Shown here: positions 1-34,355 of the stretch, one piece after another
Layout of the letters: each line of letters starts with the position of its first letter
Numbering within the stretch: the first letter of the stretch is position 1
Source of the DNA: a virus
UHGV virus genome: UHGV-2160239
Length of the DNA stretch: 34,355 nt
Direction: 5' to 3' (one strand)
Made by a program: the position numbers and the translations under genes
Notes under the pieces: model-generated
What the model saw: the letters and a program-made list of their open reading frames with translations, nothing else
Told to the model about the DNA's origin: nothing
Database searches by the model: none

Positions 1-1023
1 TTATGTGGATGAAATGTGGATGCCTCCTTTTAACGGATTAAGTGAAATTGCATCCTGGAGGAAATCAGGAGCGAGGTGCGCATAGGTCATAGTTTGCTGG
101 ATCGTGGCGTGCCCCATAATTCGCTGGAGCGTAAGTATATTTCCTCCATTAATCATAAAGTGAGCAGCAAAGGTATGGCGTAGAACATGTACAGCCTGTC
201 CTTTTGGTAGGTCTGGTTTAACACTGCGAAGCACCTTGCGATATTCCTCATAATTGACGTCAAACAAAAGGCCGGATTTCTTTGTTTTGATCTCACTAAC
301 AACTTCATCAGAGACAGGAATAATTCGAACTTTTCCGTTTTTAGTTTTGTTAAACGTCACGCGATTATTGATGATATGTTCCGCGCGCAGATTTTTCGCT
401 TCTCCCCATCTCGCCCCAGTACTGAGACAAAGTAGCGTAATTCGCCGAGCATCACCGCTTACTGCATCCAGCAATTTGGCGATTTCTTCCGTAGTGAGGT
501 ACGTCATTTCGGGTGATTTTCGTTTCAAAGAGGGGAGGGCGCGGAGTGGATTTTCTCCGTGAAATTCTCCGGCATTTGCCAGGAGTGTAAACATTCCTCC
601 GAGATCCGACTCATCACGCCGAACAGTAGACTCTTTTACTCCCAAGGATAAACGGGAGCTTCGATAAGCTGCCATGAAACGAGCATTAATCTGGCTAACC
701 CTTGGATCATTCATTTCTTTGATGATTTTTTTCAATCTGGTTAGAACGCCGTTAGCATATGGCTTATTGCGTCCACCCAATTCCCACCATAACGGAAGCA
801 GATCTGAGAGATGACGTTGCTCTGTTGGCTTTTCAAGCCATTCCTTATCGTGCATGTGGCTGAGAACATAGCGCTCAAAGGCCACTGCATCTGCCTTTTT
901 CTTAAAAATCCGCTGAATCCGACGTCCACTTCGGCCACGCGGTCTAACATCCACTTTATACCGTCCACCATCGAGTGCTTTAATTGCCATTGGCAAGCCC
1001 TCCGGTGAAACGAGGAAAGACAT
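1..1023 (-). CDS. int: Tyrosine recombinase / phage integrase (P2 Int-like)
   Basis: 340 aa ORF; C-terminal catalytic region with HVLRHTFA and TMTYAHL (R-H-R-Y tyrosine recombinase signature); position next to the C repressor as in P2. Stop codon is at window positions 1-3. Confidence 0.9.
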   Translation of the reverse strand: MSFLVSPEGLPMAIKALDGGRYKVDVRPRGRSGRRIQRIFKKKADAVAFERYVLSHMHDKEWLEKPTEQRHLSDLLPLWWELGGRNKPYANGVLTRLKKIIKEMNDPRVSQINARFMAAYRSSRLSLGVKESTVRRDESDLGGMFTLLANAGEFHGENPLRALPSLKRKSPEMTYLTTEEIAKLLDAVSGDARRITLLCLSTGARWGEAKNLRAEHIINNRVTFNKTKNGKVRIIPVSDEVVSEIKTKKSGLLFDVNYEEYRKVLRSVKPDLPKGQAVHVLRHTFAAHFMINGGNILTLQRIMGHATIQQTMTYAHLAPDFLQDAISLNPLKGGIHISST

Positions 1024-3749: not shown

Positions 3750-3949
3750 ACAAAAAGACCTGGTTTCGCGCATACATGTGGGCGCTGGTATGCGTCCTCG
3801 TCTCTCTCATTCTGTATGCAGGACTACTCCCCCGAATGATTTCATCAGACAGCTCCTTCCTGGTATTGCTGGGCATTTTCATTGCCATGCTGTACCCGGC
3901 AGGCGTTGTTCGCCTTTTCAGTAAGTACATCAAGGAAATCAAACAATGA
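3746..3949 (+). CDS. Small two-helix membrane protein (possible NfeD/YqiJ-like partner of the SPFH protein)
   Basis: 67 aa with two hydrophobic stretches (WALVCVLVSLILYAGLL and FLVLLGIFIAMLYPAGVV); ATGA overlap with the downstream SPFH gene. Confidence 0.55.
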   Translation: MNKKTWFRAYMWALVCVLVSLILYAGLLPRMISSDSSFLVLLGIFIAMLYPAGVVRLFSKYIKEIKQ

Positions 3950-4776
3950 AGAAACTCAAACTCTTTCAGATTATCCCGCTTTTTGCGGCCATCCTGTTGG
4001 TTGGTTGCGATCGCGTTGAGCCAGGTAATGTGGGCATCAAAGTCAACAAGCTGGGCGACGACAAAGGCGTCGGCGAAGTGGTTGGCGTTGGCCGCTACTG
4101 GACTGGCTGGAATACCGAGGTTTACATCTTCCCGACCTTCAAACAAATGAAGACCTACGATGAGCCGTTCAGTTTCCAGATGAGCGATGGCACAACCATC
4201 GGCTATCACATCGGCGTGGCCTACAAGGTTGATCCATCCAAAGTGACCACAGTGTTTCAGACCTACCGCAAAGGCGTGGATGACATTACCGACACTGACC
4301 TGCGCCAGAAGATCGCCGATGCACTCAACCGACTGGCCAGCAAAATGACCACCGATAAGTTTATCGACGGTGGCAAGTCTGAACTGCTGGATTCAGCACT
4401 TAAAGACATTCAGGCAGAAATGACACCTATCGGCATTCAGGTAATGAGCCTCTCTTATGTCGGTAAACCGGAATACCCACCAACCGTTATCGACAGCATT
4501 AATGCCAAAGTCACGGCAAACCAGAAAACTCTGCAACGCGAACAGGAAGTCAAGCAGCGCGAAGCAGAAGCCAACATGCTACGCGCAGAAGCAGCCGGAC
4601 AGGCTGATGCCATTCGCACAAAAGCCCAGGCTGAAGCCGACGCCATTCGTTTGCGCGGTGAAGCTCTGCGCCAGAACCCCGGCGTTATGGAGCTGGAAGC
4701 TATCAACAAATGGAACGGCACGCTGCCGCAATACATGACCAGTAATACCGCTGTTCCGTTTGTTCCGGTGAAGTAA
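3946..4776 (+). CDS. SPFH / band-7 (stomatin-prohibitin-flotillin-like) lipoprotein
   Basis: 276 aa; signal peptide with lipobox LLVGC; central SPFH-like region followed by an Ala/Glu/Arg-rich coiled coil (QREQEVKQREAEANMLRAEAAGQADAIRTKAQAEADAIRLRGEALRQ) typical of band-7 proteins. Confidence 0.8.
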   Translation: MKKLKLFQIIPLFAAILLVGCDRVEPGNVGIKVNKLGDDKGVGEVVGVGRYWTGWNTEVYIFPTFKQMKTYDEPFSFQMSDGTTIGYHIGVAYKVDPSKVTTVFQTYRKGVDDITDTDLRQKIADALNRLASKMTTDKFIDGGKSELLDSALKDIQAEMTPIGIQVMSLSYVGKPEYPPTVIDSINAKVTANQKTLQREQEVKQREAEANMLRAEAAGQADAIRTKAQAEADAIRLRGEALRQNPGVMELEAINKWNGTLPQYMTSNTAVPFVPVK

Positions 4777-4807: not shown

Positions 4808-5143
4808 AGCAGCATCAGGATTTTTTAGTATGCCGTTCTCACAAAAAAACCGCTTGCCATGCCGCAATCAGTCAGGTTACATTTCCGCTGCACCTCATAA
4901 AACGGGTGCCGGGTTTCGCAGCCTGCTGACTAGCAAAGCGCACAACCGCGCCAGCGGTTTTTTTGTGCGTACTGTATTGCCACGTCTTTTTCGCACACGA
5001 ATTATGGCGGGGCGTACGGGGCCGACTTCGGTCGGGCCGGGTTCTTTGCTAGCCGGTACTGCGAACCTCGTACGTCTCGCCACCCACAGTTTCGCAGCTC
5101 TGGATGGTGAGTTTTCAAAACTTACTAGCAAAGAGGCCACACC

Positions 5144-8388: not shown

Positions 8389-9348
8389 ATGAAAATTTGT
8401 ATCGACGACGGCTCCACCAACATCAAGCTGGCATGGACTGAGAACGGCGAACGCCGCAACGCCATCAGCCCGAACAGCTTCAAGTCGGAATGGTCTGCGC
8501 CGTTCGGTGGCACGCAGCCCGCGAACTACATGCTTGATGGCGTGCGCTATGGTTTTGATCCGGTTAGCGATCGCTTTGTCCAGACGACCGACACGCAATA
8601 CCAGTACAGCGATGTGAATGTCATTGCCATTCATCACGCGCTGGTCAAATCAGGCATCACACCACAGGAGGTGGATGTGGTTGTCACCCTTCCACTGAGC
8701 GAGTATTTCGACACAAACGCACAACCGGACATGGCCAACATCAACCGCAAAAAAGCGAACGTTATGCGCCCGGTGGAATACCAGAACGGCGAAGCATTCA
8801 CTATCCGCAACGTACGGGTTATGCCTGAATCCATTCCGGCTGGCTTTAAGGCACTGGCTGACATGAGTCCGTTTGAATCCCTGCTGATTGTGGATTTAGG
8901 CGGAACCACGCTGGATGTGGCAAAGGTTCAGGGACAACTGGCAGGTATCAGCCAGGTGTTTTGCGATCCACACGTAGGCGTTTCCCTGATAGCCGATGCC
9001 GTACTGTCGGTGATGGCCACTAACGGTATGCGTACCAGTCACCATATCGCCAATACCATCATCGAACATCGCCACGATGAAGTCTGGCTGCGCCAGCACA
9101 TCCACAATGACGCGCATTACGACAGCCTGATGGCGGTAATTCGTGAAAAGGAAGAAACACTGAAACAACGCGTGATCCGCGCGCTGGCGGGTTTTTCGGG
9201 TTACGGGCAGGTGATGGTTGTCGGTGGAGGGGCGGAGATTGTGGCACCCGCTATCCGCGAAGCCTGCGGAGTTAATGCGACTTTCATCGCGGACGGGGTG
9301 CCACAGTTTGCTCTGGTTAATGGGCTGTACGCAATGGACAAGGAGTAA
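8389..9348 (+). CDS. parM: Actin-like plasmid segregation ATPase ParM/StbA
   Basis: 319 aa; N-terminal IDDGSTNIKLAW phosphate-1 motif, YSDVNVIAIHHAL, VMPESIPAGF, LIVDLGGTTLDVA phosphate-2 and VMVVGGGAE adenosine motif, collinear with plasmid R1 ParM as I recall it. Confidence 0.9.
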   Translation: MKICIDDGSTNIKLAWTENGERRNAISPNSFKSEWSAPFGGTQPANYMLDGVRYGFDPVSDRFVQTTDTQYQYSDVNVIAIHHALVKSGITPQEVDVVVTLPLSEYFDTNAQPDMANINRKKANVMRPVEYQNGEAFTIRNVRVMPESIPAGFKALADMSPFESLLIVDLGGTTLDVAKVQGQLAGISQVFCDPHVGVSLIADAVLSVMATNGMRTSHHIANTIIEHRHDEVWLRQHIHNDAHYDSLMAVIREKEETLKQRVIRALAGFSGYGQVMVVGGGAEIVAPAIREACGVNATFIADGVPQFALVNGLYAMDKE

Positions 9349-9664: not shown

Positions 9665-9726
9665 CACAACATCAGGGCGTATCCGCCCTGATGACTTTAA
9701 CCCGGGAGCATAAACAAGGGGACACA

Positions 9727-10062
9727 ATGCAACACATTGACAGAGAAAAAGCGCAGCGACTGATTGAGCGGATGGAAGCGCTGGCGAAAGAAGAAAATGT
9801 CAACATCCAAAAAATAGCTGAATGTGGACAGATAGTTCTTCGTCGTGAAAAAGACCTCAAACAACTGATGTTTGGCGAAACCAGTAAAACATGGACTTCA
9901 GGCGAGAAGACGGTTTATTGCAGTTTCTGCAATAAATCCCAGTACGAAGTCACAAAGGTGATTGCCGGACCGTCTGTTTACATCTGCAATGAGTGCGTGG
10001 ATTTGTTCAATGAAATTATCAGGAGAGAAGTGACAGGCCATGAAGAAAAAACGCATGAATGA
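9727..10062 (+). CDS. Standalone ClpX-type C4 zinc-finger domain protein
   Basis: 111 aa from ATG 9727 (AGGGG RBS); C-terminal [38 protein letters not shown] is collinear with the ClpX N-terminal zinc-binding domain (CxxC ... CxxC); N-terminal about 60 aa is a charged helical region. Confidence 0.7.
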
Positions 10063-10123: not shown

Positions 10124-10648
10124 ATGAAAAAATACGAATACATGCTGATGAAAGAAGCACTGCGGGTTGGTTTGGCTCCCTGTCCTGTATCCGTAGAAGC
10201 TGTTGTTGGGAACACGATTTTCCGAACGCTGCGAAATCGCGTATCCGTGAAAATGATTCACCAACCACCCAATTCTATCAGCATGATTTATCTGCCGCTG
10301 CCCGAGGCTATCAAACTTATGCGTTCGTTGAAATTTGCGATTTGGATGCAGACACAACTCAACAAAGCGGTGCAAAACACCTTCGTTAAGAAACTGATGC
10401 CGGAGCTTGCTGCCAGATGTGCAAAATGTACCAGACCCGCACTTCAATTTGATCTGTCATTGATTCAACAAGCTACGGAGGCAGAACTGTACCGCCTGTC
10501 ACCTCTCCGTGATGCTCACACGGAAGCCTCAGAAATGTTCCGGCTCATGTTTCAATTTAATTTTGCCGTTCGACGCACACGCGTTCAGGTCAATCGCATG
10601 ATGCAGGCGCAGGAAGAGCTGGCGCAACACAAAGGAGACAACCAGTGA
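10124..10648 (+). CDS. Hypothetical protein (174 aa), first gene of a coupled pair
   Basis: GAGGAAAA RBS; stop overlaps the GTG start of the next gene; no recognisable catalytic motif. Confidence 0.5.
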   Translation: MKKYEYMLMKEALRVGLAPCPVSVEAVVGNTIFRTLRNRVSVKMIHQPPNSISMIYLPLPEAIKLMRSLKFAIWMQTQLNKAVQNTFVKKLMPELAARCAKCTRPALQFDLSLIQQATEAELYRLSPLRDAHTEASEMFRLMFQFNFAVRRTRVQVNRMMQAQEELAQHKGDNQ

Positions 10649-11184
10649 GCAAGATTGACTATCAGGCACTACAAATGGCAGCAGAACGTGCAATTCCGGC
10701 AATGGAACGCCTGTTAATATTGCCAGTTGATGATGATTTGTTAAGCGAACAGGAACTTAAAGATTGCGGTGTGGATATTGACGCGATCAACACCTTCAGA
10801 CTTCTGGCTGGACCGGAAACCATGCTGGCACTGCTGGAACAACAGAAAGTCAAGGACAACCGAATCGCTGAACTGGAAAAAATCGTTACTGACTATGCAC
10901 TTAAATTCCAGAAAGCACAGGACGCATTAAAGTATGCCGCTTTGCTGCATAGCCGGACGGCGCAACAAACAAATAATTTTGCAGTATTGCTTCCGGACAT
11001 AAGCGAATATTTCATTAATGACGTATTTCAGCCCTTGCGATATGAGCGGGATGTTGAAAGAGCCATCATAAAGGCTGGCGGAAAAGCATTGTGGCAGGAG
11101 AAACAGGAGGACAGAACGCATCAGTCCTGCGATGTAAATCGCGGATGGTTTAGCCCACTGACGACAGATAAAAATAACACCTGA
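10645..11184 (+). CDS. Ead/Ea22-like family protein (tentative)
   Basis: 179 aa, GTG start with AAAGGAGA RBS; N-terminus MSKIDYQALQMAAERA and coiled-coil LALLEQQKVKDNRIAELEK resemble the lambdoid Ea22/Ead family as I recall it. Confidence 0.5.
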   Translation: MSKIDYQALQMAAERAIPAMERLLILPVDDDLLSEQELKDCGVDIDAINTFRLLAGPETMLALLEQQKVKDNRIAELEKIVTDYALKFQKAQDALKYAALLHSRTAQQTNNFAVLLPDISEYFINDVFQPLRYERDVERAIIKAGGKALWQEKQEDRTHQSCDVNRGWFSPLTTDKNNT

Positions 11185-22358: not shown

Positions 22359-22959
22359 TTCACTGTTACCGCCATCAGCCAGCAATTTCATGCGTTGTGC
22401 CGAAGCTGTCGGAACGCGCATTACAGACATCCCGGTAGACCTCAACACGCTGTGGTCGCCGGACACCTGCCCGGTGCATCTGCTGCCTTATCTCGCCTGG
22501 GCGTTTTCCGTTGACCGCTGGGATCGCAACTGGCCGGAAGAGACAAAGCGACAGGTGATTCGTGATGCATGGCTGATACACCGACACAAAGGGACCATCA
22601 GCGCACTGCGAAGAGCCGTGGAACCTCTCGGCTACCTGATTGAAGTAAAGGAGTGGTGGCAACTCAACGAGGAGCCGGGAACATTTCGCATTGTTGTCGG
22701 AGTACTTGATCAGGGCATCACCGATGAAATGTATCAGGAACTTGAGCGCCTTATTGCGGATGCAAAACCAGTAAGTCGCCATCTGACGGGGCTGGCGATC
22801 AGCCTGAGTGTGAACGGAAAGATTTTCGTTGGTACGGGATGCTATCACGGCGATGCCCTGACGGTTTATCCCTACACCCCGGAGTCCATTATTGTCGAAG
22901 GGGATTATTTCCCTGCCCCGGCCATTCATTTAATTGATAATCTGAGAGTAAACGCATGA
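22351..22959 (+). CDS. I: Baseplate protein I
   Basis: 202 aa from ATG 22351; stop overlaps the H start. Confidence 0.8.
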   Translation: MSNSLLPPSASNFMRCAEAVGTRITDIPVDLNTLWSPDTCPVHLLPYLAWAFSVDRWDRNWPEETKRQVIRDAWLIHRHKGTISALRRAVEPLGYLIEVKEWWQLNEEPGTFRIVVGVLDQGITDEMYQELERLIADAKPVSRHLTGLAISLSVNGKIFVGTGCYHGDALTVYPYTPESIIVEGDYFPAPAIHLIDNLRVNA

Positions 22960-24728
22960 CAGTGAAATACTACGCCATTCTGACTAATCAGGGCGCGGCA
23001 CGACTGGCTAACGCGACGATGCTCGGCAGTAAGCTGAATCTGACGCAAATGGCCGTTGGTGATGCAAATGGTGTGTTACCAACACCAGACCCTGCACAAA
23101 CAAAACTGATTAACCAGAAACGCATTGCACCGCTGAATCTTCTGAGTATTGACCCGAACAACCAGAACCAGATTATCGCGGAGCAAATCATCCCTGAGAA
23201 CGAGGGCGGATTCTGGATCCGTGAGATTGGTCTTTATGATGATGAAGGCGTACTCATTGCGGTGGCAAACTGCCCGGAAACGTACAAACCGCAGTTGCAG
23301 GAAGGCAGTGGACGCACCCAGACTATCCGCATGATTCTGGTTGTCACGAACACCGAAGCCATCACGCTGAAAATCGACCCGTCTGTGGTTCTGGCAACCC
23401 GCAAATATGTAGATGACAAAATCTCAGAGCACGAACAATCACGACGTCACCCGGACGCCTCGCTGACCGCAAAAGGTTTTACTCAGTTAAGCAGTGCAAT
23501 TAACAGTGAATCAGAAACACTGGCCGCAACACCGAAAGCGGTTAAGACTGCATATGACCTGGCTGACGGGAAATATACTGCCCAGAACGCCACCACGACA
23601 CAAAAAGGCATTGTTCAGCTCAGTAGCGCCACGAACAGCACATCTGAAACGCTGGCTGCAACGACAAAAGCTGTTAAGGCAGCATACGACCTTGCTAACG
23701 GGAAATATACCGCTCAGGACGCGACTACGGCACGAAAAGGCATTGTTCAGCTCAGTAGCGCCACAAACAGCACATCTGAAACGCTGGCTGCAACGACAAA
23801 AGCTGTTAAGACGGTAATGGATGAAGCGAACAAAAAAGCGCCATTAAACAGCCCGGCACTGACCGGAACGCCAACAACGCCAACAGCGCCAAAGGGTACT
23901 AATAATACTCAGATCGCAAGCACGGCTTATGTTATGGACGCGATTACCGCGCTTGTAGACTCATCACCTGACGCACTGAACACGCTGAACGAGCTGGCGG
24001 AGGCGCTGGGTAACGACCCGAATTTTGCGACCACCATGACTAACGCGCTTGCGGGTAAGCAACCGAAGGATGCCACCCTGACGGCGCTGGCAGGACTTGC
24101 TACAGCAGCAGATAAACTCCCTTATTTTACAGGGGCAGATCGTGCCGCGTTAACTGCACTGACAAGTGTTGGACGCGCCATTATTGGCAAGACCAGCACA
24201 CAGGGGGTTCTTGATTACCTTGGTTTGGGGGGAGGTTCGGCGCTTCCTGTTGGTGTACCAGTTCCGTGGCCCTCTGCAACCCCGCCAACGGGCTGGCTGA
24301 AATGCAACGGCGCTGCCTTTGATAAGGTGAAATATCCAACTCTTGCCAAAGCATACCCATCAGGAAAACTGCCTGATTTACGCGGTGAGTTTATTCGTGG
24401 CTGGGATGATGGACGCGGTGTAGACAGTGGACGATCACTACTCAGTAGTCAGGATGCAACTTTTATTCGTACAGCGTTACAGGATTATTACGGGGTTGAT
24501 ACAACAACCTCTGTCAAGGTGGGGATAGCATTTGCTTCCGCCGATAAAGTACAAACAAGCGGGATACCTGCTAATTCTAAAGCTGGCGACAGCAGTAACT
24601 ATGTTCCGGCTTCGTCTGATAACTCCATTACGGGAACACAGAGAACAGCAGAAGACGGTTTTAATGGTGCATGGATATCAGTGCGACCACGTAATACATC
24701 ATTTAATTATATTGTGAGAGCTGCATAA
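22956..24728 (+). CDS. H: Tail fibre protein (P2 gpH-like) with exchangeable C-terminal receptor-binding domain
   Basis: 590 aa; conserved N-terminus MTVKYYAILTNQGAARLANA; internal 44-aa tandem repeats; C-terminal GWLKCNGAAFDKVKYPTLAKAYPSGKLPDLRGEFIRGWDDGRGVD typical of shared side-fibre tips. Confidence 0.9.
   Translation: MTVKYYAILTNQGAARLANATMLGSKLNLTQMAVGDANGVLPTPDPAQTKLINQKRIAPLNLLSIDPNNQNQIIAEQIIPENEGGFWIREIGLYDDEGVLIAVANCPETYKPQLQEGSGRTQTIRMILVVTNTEAITLKIDPSVVLATRKYVDDKISEHEQSRRHPDASLTAKGFTQLSSAINSESETLAATPKAVKTAYDLADGKYTAQNATTTQKGIVQLSSATNSTSETLAATTKAVKAAYDLANGKYTAQDATTARKGIVQLSSATNSTSETLAATTKAVKTVMDEANKKAPLNSPALTGTPTTPTAPKGTNNTQIASTAYVMDAITALVDSSPDALNTLNELAEALGNDPNFATTMTNALAGKQPKDATLTALAGLATAADKLPYFTGADRAALTALTSVGRAIIGKTSTQGVLDYLGLGGGSALPVGVPVPWPSATPPTGWLKCNGAAFDKVKYPTLAKAYPSGKLPDLRGEFIRGWDDGRGVDSGRSLLSSQDATFIRTALQDYYGVDTTTSVKVGIAFASADKVQTSGIPANSKAGDSSNYVPASSDNSITGTQRTAEDGFNGAWISVRPRNTSFNYIVRAA
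23468..23820 (+). repeat. Tandem 132-bp (44-codon) repeats inside H, about 2.7 copies
   Basis: Units starting near 23468, 23600 and 23732; copies 2 and 3 nearly identical at DNA level (KGIVQLSSATNSTSETLAATTKAVK...). Confidence 0.7.
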
Positions 24729-25330
24729 TGGATAACGCGATATTGAATAATGAACTTATTGCCGTACAGGCAGGAAGCCTCATCGTTTACAACTATGACA
24801 GTGAGACGCGGGAATATATTTCCTCATCAACTGAATATCTTGCTGTGGGAGTCGGTATTCCGGCATATTCTTGTTTAGACGCACCTGGTATACATAAGGC
24901 TGGTTATGCAATCTGCCGTTCTGTGGATTTAAATTCATGGGAATATGTGCCAGACCATCGCGGTGAAATCGTCTATAACACCGAAACGGGTGACGCCAAA
25001 GAAATCACAGCACCGGGCGAATATCCTGAAAACACAACTACTATCGCCCCGTTAACGCCATACGATAAATGGGATGGTGAGAAATGGGTGACAGACACTG
25101 AGGCACAACACAGTGCCGCAGTAGAAGCGGCAGAAGCACAGCGCCAGTCACTGATTGATGCTGCTATGGCTTCCATTAGTCTGATTCAGTTGAAATTGCA
25201 GGCCGGGCGCAAACTGACGCAAACAGAAACAACCCGACTAAACATCGTGTTGGATTACATTGACGCGGTGACGGCAACAGACACCAGCACCGCGCCAGAT
25301 GTCATCTGGCCTGAACTGCCGGAGGCGTAG
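24728..25330 (+). CDS. G: Tail fibre assembly chaperone (P2 gpG / Tfa-like)
   Basis: 200 aa; C-terminal LDYIDAV ... TSTAPDVIWPELP motif characteristic of Tfa proteins; start overlaps the H stop. Confidence 0.85.
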   Translation: MDNAILNNELIAVQAGSLIVYNYDSETREYISSSTEYLAVGVGIPAYSCLDAPGIHKAGYAICRSVDLNSWEYVPDHRGEIVYNTETGDAKEITAPGEYPENTTTIAPLTPYDKWDGEKWVTDTEAQHSAAVEAAEAQRQSLIDAAMASISLIQLKLQAGRKLTQTETTRLNIVLDYIDAVTATDTSTAPDVIWPELPEA

Positions 25331-25553
25331 GCCATTCAATATCTGGAGCACTGGAAATATCGCCCAGTTCCAGTGCATCCAGATAATCCAGCCACAAATT
25401 ATATTGCGTCAGTTCCTCACCTTTCAGACGACCAACAGCTGCTTTACCTGGCCATTGCCTTCTGTTCATGTATTCGTTGGTCTGATTAATCAGTTGCTGT
25501 TTTTTGATGGGGCCGACTAAAGACAGTCGCGACAGGAAACAACTGGCAATAAT
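25302..25553 (-). pseudogene. Remnant of a second, inverted tail fibre assembly gene (C-terminal part only)
   Basis: Minus-strand frame reads ...RLKGEELTQYNLWLDYLDALELGDISSAPDIEWPTPPAVQAR, a Tfa C-terminal motif; ends tail-to-tail with and overlapping the G 3-prime end; N-terminal portion absent. Confidence 0.5.
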
Positions 25554-25641
25554 TTACGGCACTGGTACATCGACGATTTATCGTTACCACCCCGCAGGAG
25601 AATCAAGCGGAACAATTGAGAAGAGTCAGGAAACAAAATAA

Positions 25642-25668
25642 CCGCTAATCTGGCCATTAACGGTTTTT
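25642..25668. terminator. Putative bidirectional terminator between the fibre genes and the U 3-prime end
   Basis: Quasi-palindrome CCGCTAATCTGGCCATTAACGG flanked by an A-run upstream and TTTTT downstream, so it could terminate both convergent transcripts. Confidence 0.4.
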
Positions 25669-25676
25669 GTGTTAAA

Positions 25677-26171
25677 TCAGAACAGCCCTTTAACGGAACT
25701 GGCCGCGCTGTTAAGGGATGATGTCACCTTATCTTTGAAGCCGGACAGCATATCACTGAACGATGAGGATTGCAGGCGCTCCCGCAAATCCTCATCACAA
25801 CGTTCAAGAGTCAGTGAAAATTCTATCTTTTTCGCCTTACCATAGCGATCAAACTCGGAGCGGGTCGTATTCGTTTCAGTCAGCACATACATGCCGTAAA
25901 TCTGCCCGACACCATCAATCAGAGGCCAGGGGCGTCCTGTATATGCCTGCGTGGTCAGCAACGAAAGCGACACTTCGCCACCTGTAATTTCAGGATAAAG
26001 CACGCCGGAAAGCACAATGCGATCATCACCTGCACCTATATACTGCCAGCTTGCTGAACGGTTAACGCGTTCATTTTTCACATGCCGCCAGCTTTTGTTT
26101 TGCTGTAACTGCTGATGCGGCAGTGTGCGCAGCTCAAAAACAAACATGCCGTAGATCATCATCATGACCAT
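25677..26171 (-). CDS. U: Tail protein U (P2 gpU-like)
   Basis: 164 aa; SWRH..N.RVNR ... LSGVL.PE(I/L)TGG pattern matches gpU as I recall it; last gene of the minus-strand tail operon. Confidence 0.8.
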   Translation of the reverse strand: MVMMMIYGMFVFELRTLPHQQLQQNKSWRHVKNERVNRSASWQYIGAGDDRIVLSGVLYPEITGGEVSLSLLTTQAYTGRPWPLIDGVGQIYGMYVLTETNTTRSEFDRYGKAKKIEFSLTLERCDEDLRERLQSSSFSDMLSGFKDKVTSSLNSAASSVKGLF

Positions 26172-26177
26172 GACTCC

Positions 26178-29021
26178 TCAATCTTTATCGTAAAAACTGC
26201 CACGTCCGGCACGGGCGCGCCGTTCCATCTCTGCCCTGACCATTTCACCGACCAGTTTCGCCAGTTCGCGGGGATTCTGCGTAACAACGTTATGCAGATG
26301 AACATGAATTTCACCGCCAAATCTGGAGACAGCAGGCTCCCGATTACGGGAAGCTGCAGGAACTGATGCCACTGGCGATCGTATGGCCTCCGCCACTGGG
26401 CGGGAGCTGGCCGTAACAACAGGGACCAGCGCCGGAGGCAGCGGAGCCGGGACCACGGGTGTGATCTTAATTGCGGGGGCAGGCTTACTGACCTGCGCAA
26501 TCTTCCGCTCCTGCCACTCCCCACGAACAGCAAGTGCGCGGGGCAGGTTCTTAAAGACAATATCGCCAGGGCCAATGCGTTTTTTCGTCTCATCAACCAG
26601 CTTACCTGTGTTATCAGCAATCTTGCTGAGTCTGCGTAGCGTACCGGTATTGCTGTCTGTGAGCGGTTTGTTGTCTTTGGGTTTATCGCCTCCGGTGCCA
26701 TTGCCATTTTCCGTAGACTTCGGCGGATTGATTTTCGCAATGTCTCCCTGAAACAGAGCAACCTTGTCCTGAAGAATGGCTGCACGCTGCGCGTCTTCGA
26801 TTTTCTTTCTCGCCATTTCCGCTTCATCCGGAAGCACACCGAGTTTTTCAAGTATCCACGCCAGCGTATCCAGCAACATTTTTGCAGGCGTCAAAACAAG
26901 CTGTAACGCGCCACCAAGAACGTTACCGAATACCTCGCCAGCACTGGCACATTTATCCAGCGTTTCCTTGCTGGACTCCATCGGTGACAGCAGCGATTTA
27001 AACCAGTTAAACACCTGGCTGATCCCGCTTCCGATTACGTCAAAAACAGGGCCAAACCGTTCAAAGGTTTCGCGCAACGGGGTCAGCCTTTCCATAATCC
27101 CGCTGAACACCCCGGCAAAAAATGCCCTGATGGGATCCCAGTATTTCCAGATAAGAATGGCAGCTCCGGCAAGCGCAGCCACGATAAGACCAACCGGACT
27201 GAACAGCGCTCCGATAGCACCTCCCAGCAAAGAAACGGAACCCGTCACCATTCCCCATAGTGCTGGCAGGAGCCTGACAGCATTCATTGATCCGGTCAGG
27301 AGGGAAAAACCAAGACGCAGTTTTGCCAGTGGGCCAGCAAGCACACCAAGAGCAAGCGACAACGAGCCTACGGTTGCAGTCACTGCCAGCAGCGCACCGC
27401 CTGCAATCAGTAGCTGGCGCGTCAGTACAGGATGGGCCTGCGCCAGTGCCGTCACCTTTGAGACCACCCGCGTTAGCCACTGCGTGACAGAACGCAGCGA
27501 ACCGTCAACCAGATCACTGATGCGAATACGAAGACCTTCCCATGCGCTGTCGAGATTTTTCAGGTCGCCATCAAGGTTGTCGGCCATAACCTTTGCTGTG
27601 CGTTCAGCCTCACCGCGTGCGCCCTCAAGTTCTTTTCTCAGTTTGGGTAAGGAACCGTCACCCGCCGCATCAACGAGCGCCATAAACGATGTGAAAGCCT
27701 CTTCCCCGGCGATGTCCTTAAAGAAGGATACCCGGTCAACTTCCCCGTATTTGCGGGTAGCTTTATAAAGGTCAGCCAGCAGATCTTCCATCGGGCGCAT
27801 TTTGCCCCCGGCATCCGAGACGGACACGCCCAGCTCTTTCAGAGCTTCTGCCGCCGCCTTTGGCGGTGATGCCAGACGAGCCAGGCTGGCACGCATTGCC
27901 GTCCCGGCATCACTCCCTCTGATGCCCATATTCGCCAGCACGCCAGCCATCGCTGCGGCCTGCTCCAGCGATATTCCCAGTTTACCCGCCACCGGACCTG
28001 CATATTTCATGGTTTCGCCCAGTGCGCGAAGGTCAGTGTTGGTACGGGTAAACGCTGCGGTGAGTGTGTCACCGACCCGGTCCATCTGGTCAGCAGAAAG
28101 GCCGAACTGCGTCAGGATATTTGAGCCAATATCTGCCGTCTCGCCGAGATCCATACCGCCAGCCGTTGCCATGCTCAGCACGCCGGGAAGCGCAGCCTGA
28201 ATGGCCTGCGGAGTGAAGCCAGCCATTGCAAGAAATGCCTGTCCACTGGCGGCATCGCCTGCGGTGAACTGCGTTTCAGAGCCAAGTTTTAACGCCTGCT
28301 CACGCAGCGCCTTAAACTGCGGGCTGTTTTTGTCGATTCGCGTCAGCGCCTGAACGCGGGACATCTCTTTCCCGAACCCGATCGCAGGCTGCAAAAAACG
28401 CCCGGCGGCATAACCGCCAGCCGCTGCCGCACCAATTGCCAGCGCACCACCTGTTTTCAGTTTTCCCGCAGTTTCCTGCGCGCGCGAATACCGCTCACGC
28501 GCCCGCGTTACACGCGCAAGCGCCTGCCGTTCGCGTTCAAGCTGGTTGTTGTACTGTTCGGTGCGTCTGATGGCCTGCTGGATGGTGTTATCGCTGCCTG
28601 TCAGGGAAATGCCGTGGCGTTTCAGCTCTCCGCCAAGCTCCCGCATTTTCTGAATTTCCCGTGTGCGCGATTCATTCAGGCGTTCAAGCCGGGTGCTTAA
28701 CTGCTGCATCAGCTTTTGCTGTTTTTCGCTGAGCACTGTACCCGTGCGTTGTAACTGATTAAGGGCGTTAAGCTGGCGTCGTGCTTTTACGATGCCCGCA
28801 TCCGCTTTACTGACAGCGTCACGGGCGCGCTCAAATGAACGCGCCTGACGCTCGAGATTTTTGATCGCCCCCTGCGTTCGCTGGATAGAGTCACCAAACT
28901 GCCCCATCAGGCGGCGGGCGTTTTCGGCAGGCCGGGTCAGCCTGTCAACGGCGCTGAAAGCGACCCGGATATCAAGAGTCTTCATTGTCTGCATTCCCGC
29001 TGCGAAGTGCCGCCCGCTCAC
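26178..29021 (-). CDS. T: Tail tape measure protein (P2 gpT-like)
   Basis: 947 aa; coiled-coil N-terminal region, central Gly/Ala-rich hydrophobic repeats; between E and U. Confidence 0.9.
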   Translation of the reverse strand: MSGRHFAAGMQTMKTLDIRVAFSAVDRLTRPAENARRLMGQFGDSIQRTQGAIKNLERQARSFERARDAVSKADAGIVKARRQLNALNQLQRTGTVLSEKQQKLMQQLSTRLERLNESRTREIQKMRELGGELKRHGISLTGSDNTIQQAIRRTEQYNNQLERERQALARVTRARERYSRAQETAGKLKTGGALAIGAAAAGGYAAGRFLQPAIGFGKEMSRVQALTRIDKNSPQFKALREQALKLGSETQFTAGDAASGQAFLAMAGFTPQAIQAALPGVLSMATAGGMDLGETADIGSNILTQFGLSADQMDRVGDTLTAAFTRTNTDLRALGETMKYAGPVAGKLGISLEQAAAMAGVLANMGIRGSDAGTAMRASLARLASPPKAAAEALKELGVSVSDAGGKMRPMEDLLADLYKATRKYGEVDRVSFFKDIAGEEAFTSFMALVDAAGDGSLPKLRKELEGARGEAERTAKVMADNLDGDLKNLDSAWEGLRIRISDLVDGSLRSVTQWLTRVVSKVTALAQAHPVLTRQLLIAGGALLAVTATVGSLSLALGVLAGPLAKLRLGFSLLTGSMNAVRLLPALWGMVTGSVSLLGGAIGALFSPVGLIVAALAGAAILIWKYWDPIRAFFAGVFSGIMERLTPLRETFERFGPVFDVIGSGISQVFNWFKSLLSPMESSKETLDKCASAGEVFGNVLGGALQLVLTPAKMLLDTLAWILEKLGVLPDEAEMARKKIEDAQRAAILQDKVALFQGDIAKINPPKSTENGNGTGGDKPKDNKPLTDSNTGTLRRLSKIADNTGKLVDETKKRIGPGDIVFKNLPRALAVRGEWQERKIAQVSKPAPAIKITPVVPAPLPPALVPVVTASSRPVAEAIRSPVASVPAASRNREPAVSRFGGEIHVHLHNVVTQNPRELAKLVGEMVRAEMERRARAGRGSFYDKD

Positions 29022-33406: not shown

Positions 33407-33604
33407 ATGACGCAAAATGTACGATGCAAAAATTGCAACAAACTACTTGCCCGCGCCTCATTTCACTACATTGAAATAAAATGTCCGCGCTGCAAAACAC
33501 TTAACCAGATAACGAGAGCCATTGAGCACCCCACACGCATGAGGAGTTATGACCGTGGGGATCGCAACCCAGCATCAACCAGTACATACACCGGAACACA
33601 CTAA
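33407..33604 (+). CDS. com: Com-like zinc-finger translational regulator (Mu Com family)
   Basis: 65 aa; RCKNCNKLLARASFHYIEIKCPRCKTLNQ is closely similar to Mu Com (CKNCNKLL ... IEIRCPRCK); 3-prime end overlaps the start of the methyltransferase gene as com overlaps mom in Mu. Confidence 0.75.
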   Translation: MTQNVRCKNCNKLLARASFHYIEIKCPRCKTLNQITRAIEHPTRMRSYDRGDRNPASTSTYTGTH

Positions 33605-34355
33605 GATTTACCAGATTGACAATGCCACGCTCTGTTGTGGAAATGCACTGGAAATATTGCCGCTGATTGAGCCAGAAAGCATTGATGCCTTAATCACTGA
33701 CCCGCCTTACAGTTCGGGGGCGACACACAAGGCCGGACGCACCAACCAGGGCAGTCATGCAAAATATCTGAACGGCGAGAACCTTCACCGCTTTGATGGG
33801 TTCGCGGGTGAGAACATGGACGCCCGTTCGTGGGCTTACTGGACACAATTATGGATGGCACAGGCACTACGTGCAGTCAGGTCGGGCGGTTATGCCCTGG
33901 TATTTACTGACTGGCGACAACTGCCTGCTTTAACCGATGCGTTTCAGGCCAGCGGTTTTACATGGCGTGGAATCATTGCGTGGAACAAAGGAAAGGGGTC
34001 ACGAACACCCCATACGGGGTATTTCCGGCATCAGTGCGAATACATTGTCTGGGGCAGCAAAGGCCATTTAGGTAAATCGCCTTCGGGGCCGTTCGACGGC
34101 TGCATGACGTTCCCGGTTATCCCGTCAAAGAAAATGCACCCGACCGGAAAACCAGAAGAACTAATGGCGGAGCTGGTCAGGACTGCGAATAGTGGCGGAA
34201 CAGTCCTTGATCCTTTTATGGGGTCGGGAACAACGGGTGTGGCTGCACTGAAAGCAGGGCGAAAATTTATTGGTATAGAAACCAGTGATCATTATTTTGA
34301 GGTAGCAGCGCAGCGGCTTCGGGGGAGTATTACCACAACCATTTCGACGACATAA
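33549..34355 (+). CDS. DNA methyltransferase, beta-class N6-adenine (or N4-cytosine) type, no restriction partner in window
   Basis: 268 aa; motif IV DPPY near the N-terminus and AdoMet motif I FMGSGTTGVAA near the C-terminus (beta-class order, CcrM/M.RsrI-like); stop is at the window end. Start at 33549 or GTG 33555. Confidence 0.85.
   Translation: MTVGIATQHQPVHTPEHTKIYQIDNATLCCGNALEILPLIEPESIDALITDPPYSSGATHKAGRTNQGSHAKYLNGENLHRFDGFAGENMDARSWAYWTQLWMAQALRAVRSGGYALVFTDWRQLPALTDAFQASGFTWRGIIAWNKGKGSRTPHTGYFRHQCEYIVWGSKGHLGKSPSGPFDGCMTFPVIPSKKMHPTGKPEELMAELVRTANSGGTVLDPFMGSGTTGVAALKAGRKFIGIETSDHYFEVAAQRLRGSITTTISTT

Follow-up and report, generated by a model that had tools for sequence, protein, structure and literature searches.

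Adjoining stubs of a tail-fibre assembly gene and a DNA invertase point to a lost fibre inversion switch in a P88-like Escherichia coli prophage

Just beyond the tail-fibre assembly gene G, the prophage genome analysed here (UHGV virus genome UHGV-2160239; 34,355 nucleotides, all of which we call the window) carries two gene stubs that adjoin each other back to back. On the minus strand lies the 3' end of an alternative tail-fibre assembly gene, tfa', and on the plus strand the 3' end of a serine DNA invertase gene. We consider it very probable (roughly 0.93) that one deletion of ~1.15 kb in a P88-like prophage destroyed an ancestral invertible fibre switch and left these two stubs behind. Both invertible tail-fibre cassettes (Mu G, P1 C, e14 P) and the ways in which they decay in prophages belong to textbook knowledge. 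The locus is a fossil of a known inversion switch, and prior knowledge and annotation already cover the system, its decay and the present remnant. It is of little consequence for general biology, and its practical value lies in annotation and phage typing, where it is useful to recognise an otherwise intact P88-like prophage whose host range would be fixed instead of switchable. Coordinates of the features are collected in Table 1.

Table 1. Features at and around the two stubs, in window coordinates.
Feature	Position	Strand	Basis
H tail fibre gene, 590 aa	22956..24728	+	Pfam Phage_tail_fib, Phage_fiber_2 x3, Collar
Left 26-bp crossover site, Din/Pin-type, inside H	24208..24233	+	likeness to O157 site
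G tail-fibre assembly gene, 200 aa, e14 TfaE-type, intact	24728..25330	+	Pfam Caudo_TAP E=4e-32
tfa' 3' remnant (TfaP-type alternative tail-fibre assembly gene)	25302..25508	-	Pfam, blastp, blastn
Deletion junction: tfa' codon ~80 (antisense) joined to invertase codon ~153 (sense)	25508..25511	.	blastn breakpoints
Serine DNA invertase (Pin/Gin/Cin family) 3' remnant	25511..25641	+	Pfam HTH_7, blastp
Hairpin + T-runs on both strands, between invertase stop and gpU stop	25640..25665	.	terminator scan, fold
gpU tail protein, last gene of convergent tail operon FI-FII-E-T-U	25677..26171	-	Phage_P2_GpU E=5.5e-39
Tape-measure gene	26178-29021	-	gene map

The preliminary description had assigned the minus-strand frame at 25302-25553 to a Tfa C-terminal motif overlapping the 3' end of G, and both the motif and the overlap were borne out. 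The translation of this frame after G ends in IKKQQLINQTNEYMNRRQWPGKAAVGRLKGEELTQYNLWLDYLDALELGDISSAPDIEWPTPPAVQAR and the stop codon, and it matched the Pfam Caudo_TAP profile (PF02413) at E=3.5e-15 (56.7 bits; gathering cut-off 22.1) across profile positions 71-130 of 131, which is the C-terminal half only. By blastp, the remnant was 85% identical over 67 aa to residues 81-147 of the intact O157:H7 tfa' product (147 aa; E=2e-42) and 73% identical over 67 aa to residues 71-137 of e14 TfaP (E=8e-36). It thus comprises the last 68 codons and the stop, the N-terminal ~79 codons being deleted. Tfa homology runs up to 25508 and stops there; the remainder of the frame as first delimited (25509-25553) is the antisense of the invertase stub. 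The overlap with G amounts to 29 nt (25302-25330) in the G stop region, and the same 29-nt overlap is found between e14 tfaP and tfaE and within the O157 tfa pair. The geometry of invertible segments of the Mu and P1 type had been suggested, and here the comparison pointed to the e14/Pin type instead: no blastp match to the U or U' proteins of Mu and P1 was obtained at E<=10, and the Mu and P1 tfa pairs are separated by a 28-nt gap, unlike the overlapping pair of the window. G itself hardly differs from e14 TfaE in length or sequence and is the chaperone of the expressed fibre tip. A chance ORF, a possibility that the preliminary description itself had raised, or an assembly artefact would account for the short length of the minus-strand frame and for nothing further. 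We regard this reading as vanishingly improbable: the Tfa-family similarity is significant far beyond chance, E-values against Tfa profiles and proteins ranging from 1e-15 to 1e-42, and independent read sets share the junction with closed E. coli chromosomes.

Searching the whole window by tblastn, we found the equivalent of O157 Tfa' residues 81-147 only, and not a complete two-domain Tfa; likewise, no homologue of a cognate fibre-tip gene (Sv', gp53-like) was detected in the whole window. These results agree with the earlier statement that the Tfa' N-terminus and the alternative fibre tip are absent. On the minus strand, the sequence 5' of the remnant is antisense invertase instead of a co-oriented fibre-tip gene. 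In PMC9608196, which summarises North et al. 2019, Tfa proteins are described as modular, with a variable N-domain that binds a specific fibre and conserved C-terminal helices that trimerise. Because the N-domain is described there as fibre-specific and the C-terminal helices as the trimerisation part, the tfa' remnant keeps the generic part alone.

The invertase had been listed as absent, which is correct for the catalytic domain, whereas a C-terminal stub of the gene survives directly beside the tfa' stub. This stub, about 40-43 codons and the stop, is the C-terminal helix-turn-helix alone. Its plus-strand translation ends in KDSRDRKQLAIIYGTGTSTIYRYHPAGESSGTIEKSQETK and the stop codon, matches the Pfam profile HTH_7 (resolvase/invertase helix-turn-helix) at E=2.6e-5, and is 87.5% identical to residues 156-195 of gp43 of phage P88, a 195-aa DNA invertase (E=5e-23). 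Matches to residues 161-181/183 of PinE, Gin and Cin were weaker, with 57% identity for residues 161-181 of Mu Gin and P1 Cin. When two full invertases were used as tblastn queries, the helix-turn-helix stub was the sole match and a catalytic (resolvase) domain was found nowhere in the whole window; of the serine invertase with catalytic domain that marks Din-family modules, residues ~156-195 only are represented. About 80% of the invertase is gone, the gene having lost its entire 5' ~457 nt. The record of P1 annotates an inversion enhancer within the first ~90 nt of cin (nt ~19-90), and by analogy the Fis-dependent recombinational enhancer would have been lost with the 5' part of the invertase gene. 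A spurious ORF with a TTG start (25504-25641) overlies the invertase stub.

The fibre gene H aligns collinearly with its counterparts in the O157 and 96_1414B prophages and has its Collar domain at residues 433-480. It consists of a constant part to about codon 423 and, beyond the crossover site, of a formerly invertible variable tip (Sv, Collar). The site lies in the H codons LDYLGLGGG and reads TTCTTGATTACC TT GGTTTGGGGGGA (in full, TTCTTGATTACCTTGGTTTGGGGGGA). It is two substitutions away from the left site of the prophage of O157:H7 FRIK2455 (locus L001), TTCTTGATTACCTTGGTTTGGGAGAA, which is located inside H at L001 3207-3232 and has its inverted partner at L001 5117-5134 or, more broadly, about 5117-5143, in the 5' end of the alternative tip gene. 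The e14 and P1 cix sites are similar to the window site as well, and so are those of EC958 Phi2 (PMC4134206 Table 3). The O157 pair is like the Din-family 26-bp sites that this paper tabulates for the EC958 prophages, and like its consensus for Mu, P1, e14 and p15B. The earlier statement that recombination sites are absent therefore applies to the right site and not to the left one. No second site was present in the window at up to three mismatches to the O157 left or right site or to the core AAACCNNGGTTT. The preliminary description had recommended looking for crossover-site remnants within H and near 25550, and the search returned one within H and none near 25550. Instead of the two inverted 26-bp sites of Din-family modules, the window has one orphan site in H, which could in principle recombine with the sites of other prophages if an invertase were supplied in trans. 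One related contig reads GGGGGAA at the position of the H site, and on account of it we describe the outer half-site as drifting. Relative to its O157 and 96_1414B homologues, H has one extra 44-aa Phage_fiber_2 repeat (132 nt) at 23471-23810, adjacent copies of the repeat being ~84% identical. Public short-read contigs tend to end inside H, about 315 codons from its end.

The preliminary description had also advised a search of related prophages for an intact version with an invertase, and such versions were found in phage P88 and in O157:H7 FRIK2455. In both, the order is H, tfa (+), tfa' (-), tip' (-), invertase (+), gpU (-) and tape measure (-), and a 'recombinase family protein' occupies the invertase position in 26 of the best 30 E. 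coli matches. Two collinear blocks were recovered by blastn against the FRIK2455 locus, window 24684-25508 matching L001 3677-4501 and window 25511-26400 matching L001 5656-6548. The breakpoints thus fall at 25508 (L001 4501) and 25511 (L001 5656), ~1154 bp (L001 4502-5655) being missing from a window that is otherwise collinear with its intact relatives, and the right breakpoint was identical in the comparison with P88. The gap takes out the first ~79 tfa' codons, the whole gp53-like alternative tip, the intergenic region, the right crossover site, the invertase promoter and the first ~152 invertase codons, which include the catalytic domain. As judged from these alignments, one gap of 1154 bp would explain the entire anatomy of the locus. 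The gene order of the intact relatives and the collinearity save for the ~1154-bp gap support the earlier view of a decayed second host-range module. Its truncation point had been placed near the edge of the tail operon; the breakpoint at 25508/25511 instead falls within the invertase gene, with 166 nt separating it from the stop codon of gpU.

The closest intact match among complete E. coli genomes on the tfa' side had ~90.5% nucleotide identity, and on the invertase side the best intact match reached ~92% in E. coli and about 94% over 190 nt for P88. With ~90% identity at best on the tfa' side, these relatives are too distant to reveal the exact ancestral sequence or any microhomology at the junction. 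In comparison with the invertase gene of P88, six substitutions fall at 25514-25536, within the 26 nt to the right of the junction, and six in the next 164 nt (clustering to the right of the junction, Fisher p=0.002). Five of the six in the cluster differ from the O157 allele too, and all six are shared with the 96_1414B copy. Error-prone repair and a divergent parent allele are both possibilities here; a clean deletion leaves the cluster unexplained.

We propose that the ancestor had a constant H part fused at the 26-bp site to one of two mirror-image cassettes, each of a tip and a Tfa gene, and that its serine invertase gene lay just outside the second crossover site. A single illegitimate, not site-specific, deletion from tfa' codon ~80 to invertase codon ~153 would then have stripped Tfa' of its N-domain and the invertase gene of its promoter, enhancer and catalytic domain, and would have removed the right site and the whole alternative tip. 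What remained would be two non-functional leftovers lying back to back, the C-terminal helical region of Tfa' (-) and the helix-turn-helix of the invertase (+). The fibre would be permanently locked as H(Sc+Sv) with G (TfaE-type), and a bet-hedging switch of host range would have been lost. Inversion of the segment within the prophage is impossible when a single site and a single cassette remain and the recombinase is gone.

The illegitimate route is inferred from the endpoints, which lie inside two coding sequences and are unlike the crossover site. An alternative is that the invertase itself made the deletion, acting on directly oriented crossover sites or pseudo-sites. The ancestor would have had both the enzyme and its sites, and Din-family invertases can use secondary sites. 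Both endpoints are away from the crossover sites, however, the left site in H was untouched, and the junction bears no likeness to the 26-bp site, searches of the window at up to three mismatches returning the H site only. To our knowledge, an enzyme that deletes its own catalytic domain from a site in its own gene is not the known reaction, and we find this alternative hard to credit. In the complete genomes of 96_1414B/P, the 3' end of gpU carries an IS600 (locus L002 4759-5915 of 96_1414B, corresponding to window 25720-25722) with a 3-bp overlap, taken as its target duplication, and gpU is shortened; this IS600 is absent from the window. An IS-mediated deletion was considered on account of this element and rejected, since it lies ~210 nt from the junction, has its own 3-bp duplication and is not found in the window.

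Among known systems, the e14 P segment (stfP-tfaP / tfaE-stfE, with pinE) has the same chaperone pair, G of the window being of the TfaE type and the remnant of the TfaP type. Its fibre gene also contains a crossover site of the same type (ending in ACCTTGGTTTGGGAGAA), and its invertase is encoded just outside the segment on the + strand. e14 still has its two cassettes and two sites, its PinE is active, and it inverts in culture (PMC4272514); missing from the window are the right site, the TfaP N-terminus, a tip of the StfP type and some 80% of the invertase. The window is a P2-like element, whose fibre would be frozen with TfaE on, and e14 a lambdoid one. The Mu G segment (S-U / U'-S', gin) and the P1 C segment (cin) are of the same module type, with mirror-image cassettes of tip and chaperone, 26-bp sites and an invertase of the same family; in place of two such cassettes the window has one in full (Sv + G) and a 68-codon Tfa stub. 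P88 (gp39-gp43) and the FRIK2455 prophage share with the window their backbone and the convergent gpU-tape-measure operon, but have the complete module. The window and the O157 prophage carry e14-type TfaE/TfaP, whereas P88 (L003 3861-4950, corresponding to window 24728-25508) carries Mu-type U/U' nearly identical to those of Mu, and from these different chaperones on the same backbone we conclude that the host-range module is mosaic within the genus. In FRIK2455, the tfa gene in the expressed orientation (L001 3721-4322) is annotated as a frameshifted pseudogene, and the silent tfa' is intact. A likewise decayed fibre inversion module is that of EC958 prophage Phi4, which has a truncated invertase, keeps both sites and both cassettes and still inverts, presumably by a trans-acting invertase (PMC4134206). 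Unlike Phi4, the window has one site and one cassette.

Neither stub is interrupted by a stop codon so far, and gene-calling programs place an ORF of 55 or 83 aa in the tfa' frame. This raises the alternative of a functional mini-gene, in which a peptide of the Tfa trimerisation region, of 55 aa (from the ATG at 25469) or 83 aa, aids or modulates fibre assembly. In its favour, the frame is uninterrupted, many contigs conserve the identical ORF, which is called as a gene, and the C-terminal region would be the conserved, generic part of the chaperone, to go by the summary in PMC9608196. Against it, the fibre-binding N-domain is missing, and the ATG at 25469 corresponds to a Met in the interior of intact, full-length Tfa proteins (NEYMNSKQW). 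Upstream of this ATG on the minus strand there was no promoter-like site, the sole sigma-70-like match lying downstream of it, and no Shine-Dalgarno sequence was seen on reading the sequence. The 83-aa form (25302-25553, -) has a non-ATG start, and its first 15 residues (MIASCFLSRLSLVGP) are antisense invertase. A functional mini-gene therefore seems to us highly unlikely. Since the ATG is an internal Tfa Met and no promoter-like site precedes it, we read the tfa' remnant as a pseudogene fragment that has no function as a gene and is presumably unexpressed, as would be the invertase stub. Positions 25302-25330 are constrained only in being the 3' end of G as well, and the remainder of the remnant is scar. 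Two E. coli assemblies at NCBI list the 83-aa version as a 'tail fiber assembly protein'; being a chimeric ORF, it should carry a pseudogene label. PGAP annotates the two stubs of 96_1414B as partial pseudogenes ('tail fiber assembly protein, incomplete, missing N-terminus' and 'helix-turn-helix domain-containing protein, incomplete').

The junction has been inherited in several lineages. E. coli 96_1414B/P, whose genomes are closed, have the identical junction, and so do Logan, ENA and NCBI contigs. Of the complete E. coli genomes that matched a junction query, 2/112 truly spanned the junction, both being 96_1414B/P. The exact 55-aa ORF was present on 11 contigs from public read sets, with the same orientation at all seven loci returned for it, as a locked locus would lead one to expect, and assembly GCA_014753225.1 was 100% identical to window 22956-26171. 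Scans with a junction 31-mer and a 21-mer gave no hit in GTDB species-representative genomes or in IMG/VR viral contigs; it was exact-protein look-ups that recovered the junction. At least three haplotypes share the identical junction (the window type, L015 and 96_1414B), and their host-range cassettes differ. Between the window and 96_1414B, identity was 96-100% up to ~23600 and 84-93% from 23600 to 25460, with an unalignable fibre tip at 24420-24683, and it rose to 99% from ~25462 on. G alleles are ~89% identical among the loci that share the identical junction.

The step from ~90% to ~99% identity falls at about 25461/25462, inside the remnant (11/115 versus 2/219 mismatches, p=2e-4). This suggests, as far as the alignment goes, that after loss of the switch cassettes were exchanged or replaced by homologous recombination in the 3' end of tfa', or that gene conversion took place. 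Six of the 11 nucleotide differences between the window and 96_1414B remnants are amino-acid replacements. At four of these (A to T, V to G, and the positions of I to V and T to I), the window departs from residues common to 96_1414B and the intact proteins P0002 and P0016, and a contig with an intermediate variant of the remnant exists. A large protein search for a full-length Tfa with the window-specific residues listed short or partial proteins only (<=119 aa). The replacements would fit relaxed constraint, another point against the mini-gene, although relaxed constraint is inseparable here from an effect of cassette exchange. The identical junction beside different tips and diverged G alleles, together with the identity step inside the remnant, led us to the idea that the 3' end of tfa' serves as a right-hand homology arm for the homologous swapping of host-range cassettes, a role that we put forward as doubtful. 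Expression of the stub as a generic mini-Tfa could also be envisaged and is less likely than the homology-arm role.

To the right of the stubs, the hairpin has 10 pairs in its minus-strand site (25665-25640), folds at -13.7 kcal/mol on the minus strand (z=-2.2) and is conserved in P88. It is probably a bidirectional terminator that was kept from the intact arrangement and serves the convergent operons. At one position of the stem in the window, the plus strand gives C·A and the minus strand G·U; from this difference, the gpU operon should be terminated better than read-through from H-G. The tail operon had earlier been called inverted, as though by a rearrangement, whereas its direction is the native layout in P88-like (Xuanwuvirus) phages. 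gpU is the native right neighbour of the invertase gene in the genus, the order being the same in P88 and in the O157 prophage.

Taken as a whole, the window is an E. coli prophage, complete in appearance, of the P88-like, P2-related genus Xuanwuvirus. Its positions 10000-34355 are ~95% identical to P88, Chuche, 500465-2 and P884B11 over 80-85% of the length, and nucleotide similarity and gene order both place it in Xuanwuvirus (P88-like Peduoviridae). On the Pfam map, an integrase occupies the left end and a DNA methylase the right end, with gpA replication and the head and baseplate genes following the usual order in between; the structural genes of the remaining prophage are of full length. 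The window begins exactly at the stop codon of the integrase (1-1023, minus strand), and its last base is the last base of the DNA methylase ORF (33549-34355), so that it looks like a prophage excised at gene boundaries, without host flank. Cargo of the early region comprises SPFH/Band 7 (3946-4776), ParM-like actin (StbA_N + ParM; 8389-9348), ClpX-type zinc-finger (9691-10062) and Ead/Ea22-like (10645-11184) genes.
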